Of a DNA stretch of 12,758 bases, positions 1 to 6,000 are shown piece by piece. Made by a program: the position numbers. The first letter of the stretch is position 1; each line of letters starts with the position of its first letter. Origin of the DNA: a virus; UHGV virus genome UHGV-0134735. The stretch is one strand, 5' to 3'.

Positions 1-3000
1 TCTTTATCCAGCATGGCTTCGGCAAGCAGCTTCTTGAGTCTGGCGTTCTCTTCCTCAAGCGACTTCAGGCGCTTAACTTCAGGCACCTCCATACCGCCAT
101 ACTTCTTACGCCAGGTGTAAAACGTGGCATCGGAAATGGCATGCTTGCGGCAGAGTTCACGGGCGGGTACCCCAGCTTCGGCTTCGCGGAGAATACTGAT
201 GATCTGTTCGTCGGAAAAACGCTTCTTCATGGGGATGTCCTCATGTGGCTTATGAAGACATTACTAACATCGGGGTGTACTAATCAACGGGGAGCAGGTC
301 AGTGTTGCGAGGATGGCATTTATTGCGGCTTGCTGTTGTTGCTTAGTTCGGAGGAAGATTGTTTGCTTCATCGTTACTCCTTCACTTTGATTCCAGCGGC
401 GCGAAGAACCTCTTCAATTTCCCATCCAGCATGCACAGGATAGCGGTCTGAACCGTCGCAGCATTTATCCTTTTCGCTATATGACACCGCCACATCATCC
501 CAATAATCGTCAGGCGCATGACCAGCCTGAATCCATATAAGATGTGCATGAGGCTTTGGTAGCTCAATTTCTATTGCCGCCCTGCTATCTATCCATGCTT
601 GCCATGCATTATGTAAGTCTGGGTTGTGCAGGTAATCACCCAGCATTCGCTTATTAACAATTTCCTCTACTGAGATATTGAATTGCTTTGATGCCCATTG
701 CTCGAAAGACTTTCTTGATTCGTCCATATCAATCCCCGTTAGTCGTTTCACTCACGAATCTGACAAAACCAGCCATGTTAATTTGCATGAGTTTTTTCAA
801 CACTTTGTCTCGCTGGCTACGTTTTGGTTTTGGCCTGTGGTTGAATCTTTCACAAACTGGAAGGCTTGATGATTTCCAGTACCTATTACGCCTTGCTCCA
901 TCTTCCGCCATATCGGCATGAATAAGGTCTGCGAGTGTGCTCATATTCACCTCTCCAGTTACATTGGTTTTGTAATGTTGCTAGTCATCTTACGAATAAA
1001 AAAATGCGTACGTAGCTTTGCTTCCCACATGTAAATCTCCTCAAGGCGAGATAAATCTACGAATACCGGACCTTTGTAATCTGGTCTTGATGCCCTTATG
1101 TATGAGCTAATAGTTTGTGCATCTTGCTCGTCAAGATTCATGACTTCCCTCTCTAACAGATTTCAGGTTATTCCACTCCGTTACCGCACTGCGATAATTC
1201 GCGGCCGCCACAGCGGCGTGGTTAGCGCAGTAGATTTGGCACCCGCTCTCCATGTCTAATATTGTCGGTGATTTTCCGCATTTACATTTTTTGGCACGCG
1301 GTGCGTCTGAACACATTCCGTTAACGGTGTCCATCAGGATCCACCTCGTTCTTAATCCAATAAAAAAGGGCTACTGTGTAAATAGCCCCTGTTATTAGCT
1401 CAGTGATGTAGATGGTCATTTAATACTCCGTCACGTTTTCCTGTCGCCACGCCTCGTCATATTCCGATTTCGGCATATTGGCGATGTAGCTATAAGGCGA
1501 TCCTGATTCAAGTTGCAGGAACTGGTGCGATTGCTCGTCAAGGAACAAAGGGACGCCACCTTCCCAACCTTCGCCGTTACGTTGTTTTTCAAGCATCAAA
1601 ACAGATGCCGGAGATGCCAGTAGCTGTTCGTCCTTCTCTGACATCTTTTCACCACTCTGAACTCTCTGTAACGCTCTCTCGCGAGCCTTGTTACGCCAGA
1701 TGATGAAAAGGTTGTCTGTCAGGTCTGTTATCGCTCCAGAGCCTTTTACGTCCATTTTCCCGGTTGGTTTTTCTTCGCTGTCTCCTTTTCGCGAGTGAGT
1801 AACGAGAATGACGTGGGAGTTTGTTTTGTTTTTGAAGTCGCAAATCGAGTCAACAAACGCCTTCTGCCCGTTATAGTCATCGTCGCCTATGCCACATTTC
1901 ATCAGGCTGTCGATGATGAATAACTGGATCCCGTATCGGCGGCGAGCGTAGTCGAATATTTCGATCAGCCTGTCGGCTTTCGCCGTTCCGGTCAGACCAA
2001 ACACCCAAAGTCTTTCGTCATAAAATTTAAATGCAGAGTCAATTTCCAGCACTGGCGGCATCTTGCAGCACGTCGCCTGACGGGTAAGGCGCTTAAGGAG
2101 AATACCAGGCTTCAGCTCAAGTGACGCGATGCACGTCTTCACACCCTGACGCATTGCCTCAAGTGCCATATGCCCGACAACCTCCGTTTTTCCGTGACCG
2201 TTCACACCATTGACCAGCGTCAACTCTGCCTCACGGAACTGGAATTTATCTGCCAGAGATTCCCACGGTGGATTAAACAGATACTGCTGCTTGCCGTAGA
2301 AAGCGTTGATAGTGTCCTGGTAAAACTCTCGCGCGCTGTAGAGTTCTTCAGGATCGAAGTAGGATGCCGTGCCGATGTACTGCCAGATTTCATCCTCGGT
2401 AACACCGTTCATCAGGCATTCGTTGATGTCTTTGTACGGCAGAGTAACAAGACGGCAACGATGTTCACCGAGTCGGCTTGCGATTTCCCTTGCGGCTTCA
2501 CGACCAACATCATCAACGTCCATCGAGATGAATATTTCCTCAAACCTGTCGAGGTTGTGATACTCAAACTCAATCCACTGCTGCTTAGCGCCTTTCCCGC
2601 CACCAAACGGCACGGATAACGCCGAGATGCCGTATTGCGCATAGCTCATACAATCAATTTCGCCTTCGCAAAGCACAACCGCCCTCACGCCAGCGTCCAG
2701 AGCCTGCCATCCGAACAGACAAGGTTCGCAATCACCTTCTGCCATAATGACTTTCTTCCCGTCCGGGCGCTCAGTGCTGATTCGCTTGACCTGCAACAAC
2801 TCACCATCGCGTTTGTACGGAATCACCAGAGCATCCAGTTCTCGCTCTCCATTCCACACCTTGCCGCTGACAACCTCGTAGCGCTTTACGACTTCTGGCG
2901 ATATGCCACGCGATTGCAGGTACTCAAGATGGGATTCTGTTCTGGTAACGTAGCGGGCGATTTTCTTGCGATCAGGTCTGGAGAATTTCTTCTCACGTTT

Positions 3001-6000
3001 GGCATCGAAATGGTGATCGTCATCCTTGATACCGAGAAATGCTTTCGCTTCCTGCATAGCCTGATGCAGGTTAATTCCTCGACATGCCATCCACAAATCA
3101 AGCATGTCACCGCCGTCCCCCTCAGCGAAATCAGCCCATTTTTTCTTGCCGCTAAGGTTGACCTTAAGGCTGTTTCCCTTGTCACCGTTGACGTTACCGG
3201 CAACCCACTCATGCCCCTCTTTCTTGCCGTTTGGCAACAGGTGCGGAGCCACCCTGTCAACCTGCGCCCAAAGCAGGTCGCTAAGTTCACTTGGCGTCAT
3301 GATTCCCTCAGATTGAGATTTTTAAACCAGAAATCGACAAACGAAATACTTAACCAGCCGTGGTTATAACCAGCGACCAGTAGCGATTTGATTTTTGATT
3401 TCATGGTTCACCTGTCGAAAAACACGTAGCCAGTTTTCGATACGGTGATTGCGGATGATGGTTTGGATTGTGGTTGAATAGTTTCTGGCTTCTCGTCGTT
3501 CCAGCGTTGACCGTTCAGGTAGCTCGATGGTAACAACCTGTCGAATCCGAACTGCTTACCATTCCTGCATGCGATGTCTTCTGCCAGCATCGTGGCAAAC
3601 TCGCTTGCCGTACCCCTGGTAGTTTTACGCCATTCCCTGAACTGTGTTCTGAATGCCGAAGCTGCGTTTTTCTTCCCGGCTTTCCGCATGCCTGCACACC
3701 AGAATATTTCCTCGAATGCCTTGTCGGTTTCTTCGTGACGGTCATGTGATTTTTCACACTCCGTCCGAACACTTTCGGACATAGTGTTTTTATTATTTCT
3801 TTTTTCTTTTGTAATAGTTTCTTTTGTGTGTCCCTGTTTTGGTGACAGCGCTGTCACCGTTTTGGTGACACTTTTTGTCACCAATGCAGTGACATTATCA
3901 CCAGAGTAGTGACACCCTTCTATTTGCCATTCCTCGATGTTCTTGTTAGGCCCGATTTGCTGGCCTTCGCGAAGGATAACCTTCATCGCGATAAGCTCAT
4001 TCTTGGCCTTGTTTACCTTCTGTCTTGGCAGCCTGGTAATTTGAGCTAACTGACTATCAGAGATGCGATCCATCTTTTTACCGTAGCCGTATGTTTTACG
4101 GCATATGGCGTGGGCAACCTTGCTCTGATTTTTCGTTAAATCTGCGCCGATAAGCTCTTCATACAGGGCATTTGCAAGACGGGTATAACCATCTTCAACT
4201 TCTGCCACACGACGCTCCACAGGCCGTTGTGAAGGCCTTAAATGTGTTACGGTTGCAAGATTACTCATGACCTTTCTCCTTCTGCATCAGCTTCACTTTT
4301 TCCAACTCAGCTCGGAATCGACCAGGCTGCTTGAAGCTGGACAGGAAGCGATCACGTAGTATGTGTTTGTGAATTTTGTCCTGGTAAGGACTGAGTTGTT
4401 TTGTCATAATTACTCCTGTTGATAGATCCAGTAATGAACTCAGAATTCCATCTGGATTTGATCAGAACGCCCGGTCTTGCACACCGGGCGTTTTTTATTG
4501 GTGAGTTCATCAAGCGCATACTTAAAAGCCCTACTAATCGGACTGATGTCTGATGCCATTCCGAAAGCACACAAGACCGAAGCAATAAACCTCCAGTCCG
4601 TTCTGCTTATCTTCGATTCATGACAGCCAATCATCTTTGCCAAACCGCGCTGGGTAAGCGTTGACAGGTTGATGAGTAAATCAGTTTCAGCGCGATCAAT
4701 TTCTCGCTGTGTTGGCTTGCTGTAACTTGCTTGTGTCATTTCTTAATATTTCCAATAGTGAATAGTTAGTTGAAAGGTATGCGTGGAAACGCATATGACC
4801 TTAGTTGGTCAGATATCTTGGGACTCGCTTTGTCAGCGACGTAGGACGAATGTCCATTGTGAAAAGAGCGGATCCGCTTATTAAGCGGCTTGGTGTTCCG
4901 GCGGGAACACGTCATCAAGACTGACTTTTGCGCCTAACTTGTTTAGGCACGCAACAAGAGCACGGCATGTTTTAAGGTCTGGGAAGCGACGACCAGATTC
5001 CCAATGTCCGATAGCCCCCTGTGTGCATCCAACCGCCTTAGCAAGGGTTGTTTGAGAGATATTCAGTGACTCTCGATATTTTCGTAGGTTGCTCATATGC
5101 CCTCCATAGTAACCATGAAACAATAATACGATATGTACTCTTGGAATGCAAACAAAAAATACACCTTGTGCATGGATGGTTTTAGTACAGAGCGTAATAA
5201 TAAGGATATGAAAATGAAATGGTATGAACTGGCTAGATCCAGAATGAAAGAGCTCGGCATAACTCAAGAGAAGTTAGCTGAAGAGCTTGGTATGACGCAG
5301 GGTGGAATTGGTCACTGGTTGCGCGGATCTCGTCATCCATCTCTTGACGAGATTGGTGTGGTGTTTAAATACCTTGGTATTGATAACGTCTCATTCAACC
5401 ACGACGGTACATTTTCACCTGTTGGCGAATACTCATCTGCCCCCGTAAAAAAACAATATGAGTACCCTGTTTTTTCTCATGTTCAGGCCGGGATGTTCTC
5501 GCCTGAGCTTAGAACCTTTACCAAAGGTGATGCGGAGAGATGGGTCAGCACAACCAAAAAAGCCAGTGATTGTGCGTTTTGGCTTGAAGTTGAAGGTAAT
5601 TCCATGACCGCACCAACAGGATCCAAGCCAAGTTTTCCTGACGGGATGTTAATTCTCGTTGACCCTGAGCAGGCTGTTGAGCCAGGTGATTTCTGCATAG
5701 CCAGACTTGGTGGTGAGGAGTTTACCTTCAAGAAACTGATCAGGGATAGCGGTCAGGTGTTCCTACAACCACTAAACCCGCAATATCCAATGATCCCATG
5801 CAATGATAGCTGTTCCGTAGTAGGGAAAGTTATCGCCAGCCAGTGGCCTGAAGAGACATTTAGTTAACAGCATCACCACTCTAAAACACACAACAATAAC
5901 CCGACCTTAGCGTCGGGTTTTCTTTTTCCAAAATATAAATCAATAAAATACAAAGTGTTATAAAAAACCAACCATATTTAGAACATTTTGTATTGACTCA

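Follow-up and report, generated by a model that had tools for sequence, protein, structure and literature searches.

How does a lambdoid phage that carries an O-type replication initiator and lacks a P-type helicase loader bring a helicase to its origin? This question is raised by positions 1420-4268 of the UHGV virus genome UHGV-0134735, a stretch of 12,758 nucleotides that was analysed over its full length (the window). A sequence-only reading of this DNA had proposed that a lambda-O-type initiator is paired here with the phage's own primase-helicase in place of a P-type loader, and that the initiator C-terminus presumably recruits this helicase, independently of host DnaB. The module consists of three genes:

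3408-4268, minus strand: replication initiator gene, 286 amino acids (aa), defined as an open reading frame (ORF) and from its translation, with an O-type N-domain, an origin-bearing linker, a non-lambda C-domain and a tail
3297-3404, minus strand: conserved 35-aa ORF between initiator and primase-helicase, a homologue of ES18 gp60
1420-3300, minus strand: primase-helicase of the T7 gp4/Twinkle family, 626 aa (PDB 5ikn/6n7i, E ~1e-23; phrog_239; Pfam)

The coordinates, strand and lengths of the two larger genes agreed exactly with those read earlier (3408-4268, 286 aa; 1420-3300, 626 aa). The primase-helicase had been described as following the initiator; the two are not adjacent, being separated by the conserved 35-aa ORF, which that reading had overlooked. 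We found that the C-domain and tail of the initiator travel with the 35-aa ORF and the primase-helicase as a single inherited unit, with the N-domain swapped independently. We give a probability of roughly 60% to the reading that an O-some forms at an origin within the initiator gene, and that a gp4-type helicase able to load itself is brought there by the C-terminal region of the initiator, perhaps assisted by the 35-aa protein, so that host DnaB and DnaC are bypassed.

Inheritance of the cassette was followed in pooled loci, drawn from phages in GenBank, from IMG/VR and from GTDB at one genome per species. A first IMG/VR scan gave mostly near-identical loci, and the diversity came from the scan of GTDB genomes, with a consensus-like first sequence. 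Initiators entered the linkage count if they were distinct, were at least 49% identical to the window protein in the C-domain and had 2.1 kb or more of sequence downstream. The primase-helicase lay directly downstream in 82 of 84 such initiators, the two exceptions being decayed (in one the initiator gene is truncated, and in the other, from an endosymbiont, the helicase is a fragment), and was downstream of none of the 21 initiators with a more distant C-domain. Among 60 distinct helicase-linked initiators the N-domain belonged to Phage_rep_O in 37 and to HTH_36 in 15, and was unrecognised in eight.

Individual phages showed the same exchange of N-domains. The initiator of Stx2a_F451 has an unrelated HTH_36 N-domain and is ~95% identical to the window protein from residue ~160 on; the junction lies at about residue 135 of its 258 aa, and the helicase downstream is 96-99% identical. 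Phage Fraca has a third kind of N-terminus, with a C-domain 55% and a helicase 61% identical. DNA homology to the window spans 1416-3841 in ES18 and 1416-3792 in Stx2a_F451; what is held in common is thus the block between the helicase stop codon and the origin, which are exactly the two limits of the unit. Among divergent loci, C-domain identity rose and fell with helicase identity (Spearman 0.84, n = 35) and N-domain identity was uncoupled from it (Spearman 0.11, n = 26), all identities being taken against one reference.

The C-terminal half of the initiator was then divided into two features:

3495-3734, minus strand: conserved helical C-domain core, aa 179-258, motif FW.AGMRK...QFGFD.L.P..YLNG.RW.DE, without a Pfam model
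3411-3485, minus strand: C-terminal tail, aa 262-286, ending in ITVSKTGYVFFDR, a candidate partner-specific docking peptide

Initiator residues 158-286 gave no BLASTP alignment to lambda O, and comparison of the C-domain profile with lambda O in hhalign gave a probability of 0.04, which rules out kinship with the lambda O C-terminus. The earlier claim that the two are unrelated, for which an alignment had been named as the test, was therefore upheld by both methods, and the region is not homologous to the P-binding domain of lambda O. Kinship with the P22 gp18 C-terminus was ruled out in the same way (hhalign probability 0.13), and the core (aa ~179-258) had no sequence relative in Pfam or PDB. 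There are accordingly three O-type N-domains with three unrelated C-termini and three partners: lambda O with P, P22 gp18 with the DnaB-like gp12, and the window initiator with a gp4-like helicase.

In the 60 helicase-linked initiators the tail reads ...ITVSK.GYVFF(DR), with G280, V282 and F283 each at least 90% conserved. Tails differ in the three relatives examined that have other downstream genes (PVA1, D65 and Skulduggery). On its own the tail is probably disordered, as suggested by low AlphaFold2 confidence; AlphaFold2 on the whole initiator without an alignment gave a predicted local distance difference test score of 43 and an unusable model. The linkage, the N-domain classes, the boundaries, the co-divergence and the tail motif are all consistent with a partner-specific contact between C-terminus and helicase, a fit of sequence patterns rather than a proof.

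Which kind of helicase is inherited with this C-terminus was clear from domain searches and structural alignments. The parts of the protein are:

2413-2676, minus strand: Toprim primase catalytic core, aa 209-296 (Pfam Toprim_2; motifs CEGEID, MDVDDVG and YKDINE)
1519-2238, minus strand: DnaB-family RecA-like helicase domain, aa 355-594 (Pfam AAA_25 and DnaB_C; T7 gp4 alignment)
3085-3225, minus strand: region resembling a zinc finger but lacking the zinc ligands, aa 26-72 (match of TIGR01391 dnaG over aa 26-143)
1423-1683, minus strand: C-terminal extension, aa 540-626 (87 aa), past the T7 gp4-aligned part, which stops at aa 539

The family phrog_239 ('DNA primase/helicase') matched the protein at E 2e-171. 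Its nearest solved relatives are T7 gp4 (5ikn, E 2.6e-23, aa 192-539) and Twinkle, and alignments to 5ikn, 6n7i and 1q57 gave E values of 1e-21 to 1e-23. Toprim_2 matched at E 3e-12 (47 bits against a cut-off of 22), and its acidic motifs align with EGEID, DMDEAG and KDANE of T7 gp4, as expected of a gp4-type Toprim domain. In the RecA-like helicase domain, Walker A (GVNGHGKT, aa 365-372) and Walker B (LFIIDSL, aa 460-466) are both intact; Pfam DnaB_C alone falls under its cut-off (23.9 against 27). The sequence-only description of a 626-aa protein joining Toprim to a DnaB-like ATPase was thus borne out by Pfam and by the T7 gp4/Twinkle alignment. Primase and 5'-3' helicase activities, and loading without a loader, would go with membership of the T7 gp4/Twinkle family.

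The N-terminus departs from the gp4/Twinkle pattern, as the Cys4 zinc-binding domain is missing clade-wide. The first Cys of the protein is residue 73, with none in aa 1-72, and the zinc-finger-like region is conserved across the whole primase-helicase clade with zero or one Cys; the Fraca-type branch retains a single one (EWC). This zinc-less N-terminus resembles that of metazoan Twinkle, where primase activity is lost. In T7 gp4 the zinc-binding domain is required for template-directed priming and template recognition, and because the zinc-less region is the counterpart of that domain, independence from host DnaG cannot be assumed. At the other end of the protein, the close of the C-terminal extension (NYIANMP.SEYD..W..NVTEY, 1423-1510) is conserved clade-wide, the Fraca-type branch included, and this acidic/aromatic motif is a possible contact site for host polymerase, single-stranded DNA-binding protein (SSB) or the initiator. 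The N-terminal 200 aa and the C-terminal 88 aa gave no Pfam match even at E<=10.

The gene is interrupted in some relatives. Stx2a_F451 gp36 (locus L008, 2501-5407) is a primase-helicase of 968 aa with a 342-aa in-frame insertion, apparently an intein, exactly within Walker A (GHGK|T). The same insertion occurs in loci L012, L020, L076, L078, L082 and L083, which are Stx2a phages and some IMG/VR contigs.

The absence of a P- or DnaC-type loader, also part of the sequence-only reading, was confirmed on two levels. Pfam scans of all other plausible ORFs of the window gave no match to the Phage_lambda_P, IstB/DnaC or DnaB families, and as a positive control lambda P was detected by PF06992 at E 6e-62. 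The complete genome of Sf101, an isolated P22-like phage of 38.7 kb whose module is 99% identical, likewise contained no P, DnaC or DnaB gene, the genes of this module being the sole replication genes there. The initiator therefore has neither a P-type (PF06992) nor a DnaC-type loader beside it, as a lambda O/P module would.

The remaining part of the initiator supplies the binding domain and the origin:

3798-4268, minus strand: N-terminal O-type domain, aa 1-157, presumed iteron-binding (Pfam and TIGR01610 matches)
3829-3847, 3852-3870, 3876-3894 and 3896-3914, no strand: four dyad-symmetric 19-bp iterons, TGTCACC-N5-GGTGACA (search for direct and inverted repeats)
3780-3826, no strand: AT-rich tract of 47 bp, presumed DNA-unwinding element, read from the sequence as acaaaagaaactattacaaaagaaaaaagaaataataaaaacactat
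3756-3787, no strand: palindrome with 14-nt arms, 86% complementary, and 4 nt between the arms, an inverted repeat flanking the AT-rich tract

Phage_rep_O (Pfam PF04492) matched initiator aa 20-114 at E 1e-37 (128.8 bits against a cut-off of 28.7) and TIGR01610 phage_O_Nterm matched at E 2e-30 (105 bits against 45.5). By BLASTP, aa 1-157 are 49% identical to lambda O 1-155, and the N-domain is 45% identical to that of P22 gp18. This domain annotation places the N-terminus among the O-type DNA-binding domains, as had been expected of a lambda-O-like initiator. The iterons (3829-3914) fall within the segment that codes for the inter-domain linker, and iterons and AT-rich tract thus lie inside the initiator gene, as they do in O-type initiators. 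The layout of iterons, AT-rich tract and palindrome is that of lambda ori within gene O, with the AT-rich tract in the equivalent position, and the ES18 GenBank record has a 'similar to lambda ori' feature at the equivalent place. The iteron pattern gave four clustered matches and one weak match elsewhere against 0.44 expected per window, and 0/200 shuffles gave five matches. The fifth match (3180-3198, plus strand, 3 mismatches) lies in the 5' part of the primase-helicase gene and is probably due to chance.

These parts suggest the following mechanism. The N-domain would bind the iterons and build an O-some that strains the AT-rich tract. The helical-core subfamily and/or the ...ITVSK.GYVFF tail, possibly aided by the 35-aa protein, would then deliver the phage hexameric helicase to the opened DNA. 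T7 gp4 is self-loading and works without a separate loader; by ring opening of this kind, the phage helicase would load without a P/DnaC-type protein. It would unwind the DNA for host DNA polymerase III and may supply primers as well. Neither host DnaB nor DnaC would then be needed for initiation, whereas it is less certain that DnaG is dispensable too; independence from host DnaB is what the gene content leads us to infer.

Several points weigh against this mechanism. We found no experimental study of the module in the searchable literature, nor an account of how it starts replication. The zinc-finger cysteines are lost from the primase, so priming may still need host DnaG. Co-inheritance could be mere adjacency, with ~110 bp between the initiator and helicase genes, and the identities behind the two Spearman correlations, having a single reference in common, are not phylogenetically independent. 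Lastly, C-domain relatives of 27-48% identity precede DnaB-type helicases, DnaC/IstB-type loaders, or neither, and because the partners of relatives vary in this way the core may serve a function common to all initiators.

The breadth of the C-domain family was taken from a representative search and the locus scans, as searches with a 126-aa fragment or profile gave short or partial proteins. The core family comprises 365 representative clusters at E<=1e-3, and the core is fused to N-domains of at least five families (HTH_36, Phage_rep_O, DUF1376, DnaD_N, Lin1244_N and others). C-domains 38-48% identical are followed by the gene for a full DnaB-type helicase in Microbulbifer, Halomonas and related genera, and by a DnaC/IstB-type loader gene in Ectothiorhodospira, Actinobacillus and Pseudomonas phage Skulduggery. 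More distant relatives have DnaB-type, DnaC-type or other neighbours, or no such gene. Because the partner changes with distance, the C-domain is most reasonably taken as an initiator module of a general kind, in which particular subfamilies have particular partners. The idea that the core is specific to primase-helicase partners is ruled out by the DnaC-type, DnaB-type or absent neighbours of its relatives. The C-terminus had been called novel; its core is instead widespread and not specific to this pairing. The proposal that the C-terminus recruits the helicase holds in part: it is co-inherited with the primase-helicase while the N-domain swaps, and the core is not unique to the pairing.

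Some relatives of the C-domain stand apart from these arrangements. Stand-alone C-domain ORFs of 113-117 aa occur in loci L090 (5001-5342) and L091 (458-811), on phage-like contigs of ~38-40 kb without a helicase or loader nearby, and may be split initiator genes; the one in L091 comes just after a T5orf172/MUG113 (GIY-YIG-like) gene. In the Roseovarius metagenome-assembled genome OX638333.1 (L132-L136), an identical 245-aa initiator is found at five chromosomal places, downstream of a DnaB-type helicase gene. The genes downstream of the five copies have two different arrangements, and the locus may be a multi-copy element.

Among the other explanations, one that is compatible with the mechanism favoured above gives the 35-aa protein a larger part, as a real adaptor or mini-loader that bridges the initiator C-terminus and the helicase, or that opens or activates the ring, in a role like that of P. 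The ORF starts 3 nt past the initiator stop, and its own stop overlaps the primase-helicase start (ATGA), consistent with translational coupling. It is present in essentially every cassette and occurs with all three N-domain classes. Exactly 35 codons are kept in 45 of 46 distinct nucleotide variants, and diversity by codon position (10.3 / 6.3 / 14.6) has the pattern of coding sequence. The conserved motif is MK..IK.LL.AGYNHG.LS..FV..WF. A NUMOD4-HNH homing-endonuclease gene of ~490 bp lies between the 35-aa ORF and the primase-helicase in L009 (3378-3872; E. coli NZ_LR536431), and the same insertion is found in L028, L036 and L048; the 35-aa ORF stays intact and so survives the adjoining gene. 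The ORF is part of the cassette, and its product is a candidate adaptor. However, it has no family match in Pfam or NCBIfam and might just as well be a regulator or some unrelated small protein. A tblastn search did not find it in the helicase-linked loci L101, L104, L109, L124 and L127, although such searches have low sensitivity when the query is as short as 35 aa. On balance we regard a true adaptor role as unlikely, though worth keeping in view.

A broader proposal would be that the ~80-aa helical C-domain is a general helicase-coupling module, its subfamilies choosing the machine (gp4-type, DnaB-type, DnaC-type loader or host DnaB), and that in the subfamily present here the 35-aa microprotein is an indispensable third partner in loading a gp4-family helicase at an origin with iterons. 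We found no description in the literature of an initiator-directed loading route for gp4-family helicases, and we put this proposal forward tentatively, as one that would probably not hold in its full form.

Alternatively, the C-domain may have a generic initiator role (it could melt the origin, oligomerise or touch a host factor), in which case the helicase would load itself at the opened AT-rich tract and the linkage would reflect adjacency. Helicases of the gp4 type are self-loading. The varied company of the core, which is found with a DnaB-type helicase, with a DnaC-type loader or with neither from the phage, and its fusion to five or more N-domain families would suit such a role, and so would a survey in which 34 of 314 lambdoid phages encode an O homologue alone (PMC12315714). 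Three observations make it a rather improbable explanation. Subfamily and partner type segregate cleanly (82/84 against 0/21); mosaic junctions fall at the origin and never between C-domain and helicase, across at least three N-domain classes; and the G.VF motif of the tail is kept in helicase-linked initiators and differs in the three non-helicase-linked relatives examined.

It is very unlikely that host DnaB stays the replicative helicase, recruited by the C-domain as is presumably the case in O-only lambdoid phages, with the gp4-like protein needed chiefly for priming or for replication that is late or depends on recombination. The C-domain core does occur in phages without a helicase gene (PMC12315714), and the zinc-less N-terminus marks divergence from canonical gp4, but Walker A, Walker B and the T7 gp4-aligned region are intact and conserved, the gene sits at the exact position of lambda P and P22 gene 12, and with host DnaB as the partner there would be little reason for so strict a linkage to one C-domain subfamily.

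If delivery of a self-loading phage helicase by the initiator is true, carrier prophages replicate without host DnaB and DnaC. Carriers of the module include many Salmonella and Shigella P22-like and ES18-like phages and the Eru5 Stx2a phages of outbreak O157:H7 strains, so that this would bear on stx2 gene amplification after induction. The module would also be a tractable system for how an origin-bound initiator loads a gp4/Twinkle-type helicase. What the analysis itself yields is a cassette of three genes whose mosaic boundaries are exactly placed, together with a conserved microprotein and a domain family that lacks annotation.

The arrangement is real, common and already known, having been annotated in phage ES18 in 2005. 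The module was present in 298/5426 complete E. coli genomes, and over its 2849 bp DNA identity was 99% to Sf101 and mEp043, 91% to SEN22 and ~88% to ES18 and epsilon34. ES18 genes 59-60-61 are the same cassette, in the same order of C-domain subfamily, 35-aa ORF and gp4-like primase-helicase (gp59-gp60-gp61), and it is also found in epsilon34, g341c, SEN22, Oslo, Sf101 and mEp043. Between ES18 and the window the C-domain is 96%, the 35-aa ORF 97% and the primase-helicase 92-97% identical. The ES18 GenBank record (2005) calls gp59 'similar to phage lambda gpO' and gp61 'putative primase/helicase; similar to phage T7 gene 4', and lists gp60, 35 aa long, without assigning it a function. ES18 differs in its N-domain, which is just ~55% identical, and in that DNA homology ends within the iterons, at window position 3841; for both reasons its origin specificity is presumably different.

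The 'Eru5' Stx2a phages (F403/F451, phi24B and Min27; PMC8951638) have the 35-aa ORF, a C-domain 95% and a helicase 96-99% identical. They differ in the unrelated HTH_36 N-domain, in the end of homology at window position 3792 and in the 342-aa insertion (apparent intein) in the helicase. The Eru5 replication region was defined by this same helicase, with F403 as the Eru5 type phage; that paper speaks of just a helix-turn-helix (HTH) protein and a primase and does not mention the shared C-domain (PMC8951638).

In lambda O/P, the N-domain (49% identical), the four iterons, AT-rich tract and palindrome within the gene, and the place in the operon after cII are alike; the C-domain is unrelated, and lambda has P and borrows host DnaB through it, whereas there is no P gene here. 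P22 gp18/gp12 is the classical lambdoid precedent for bypass of host DnaB, and because of it the idea that an O-type initiator may have another C-terminus and work with a helicase of the phage in place of P is a classical one. P22 gene 18, like the window initiator gene, codes for an O-type N-domain (45% identical) and for a C-terminus unlike that of lambda, and holds the origin; gene 12 supplies a phage helicase where lambda has P. However, the gp18 C-terminus is unrelated, gp12 is of DnaB type without a primase domain, and there is no 35-aa ORF between the genes. The module is accordingly not of the gp18/gp12 kind (gp18 C-terminus with a PF00772/PF03796 helicase), its helicase having Toprim and no DnaB N-domain.

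T7 gp4 and Twinkle share the Toprim primase core fused to a DnaB-family helicase (aa 192-539 aligned at E ~1e-23). The window protein differs from T7 gp4 by the missing Cys4 zinc finger, by ~190 residues before Toprim against ~75 in the aligned T7 chain, and by the extra conserved 87-aa C-terminal extension. The context differs as well, with an iteron-binding initiator present and no phage DNA polymerase. In IncQ plasmids (RSF1010 RepC/RepA/RepB') and in SPP1 (G38P/G39P/G40P), an iteron-binding initiator recruits a hexameric DnaB-family helicase encoded by the element. IncQ plasmids also have their own primase and replicate independently of host DnaB, DnaC and DnaG; their helicase and primase are separate proteins, and SPP1 relies on a dedicated loader. 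No sequence relationship between IncQ or SPP1 and this module was detected, though no search aimed at one was made.

As a whole, the window covers the early region of a lambdoid prophage, and the replication cassette is its early-right part, P22/ES18-like. On the plus strand are genes for the prophage repressor (cI-like), N, Erf, Abc2, Ea22-like proteins, Xis and Int. The minus-strand order, from ~5100 to 374, is Cro, CII, a DUF2740 ORF, the initiator, the 35-aa ORF, the primase-helicase and small nin-region genes. The DUF2740 ORF (48 aa, a P22 orf48 homologue; 4261-4407, minus strand) overlaps the initiator start by 8 nt. RefSeq labels it 'tail protein' in the Sf101 and P22 records, which is clearly a mis-annotation because the gene lies in the replication operon. 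Between erf and abc2, a 157-aa ORF (8181-8654, plus strand) had no Pfam or NCBIfam match; in ES18-type recombination modules an accessory gene, SSB or another, holds this position. Window positions 1-307 are the terminus of an IS3-family insertion sequence (ISSen4-like), 99.7% identical to copies in many E. coli genomes. The insertion site is in the nin region, ~1.1 kb downstream of the primase-helicase, and because of this element the prophage may be disrupted.

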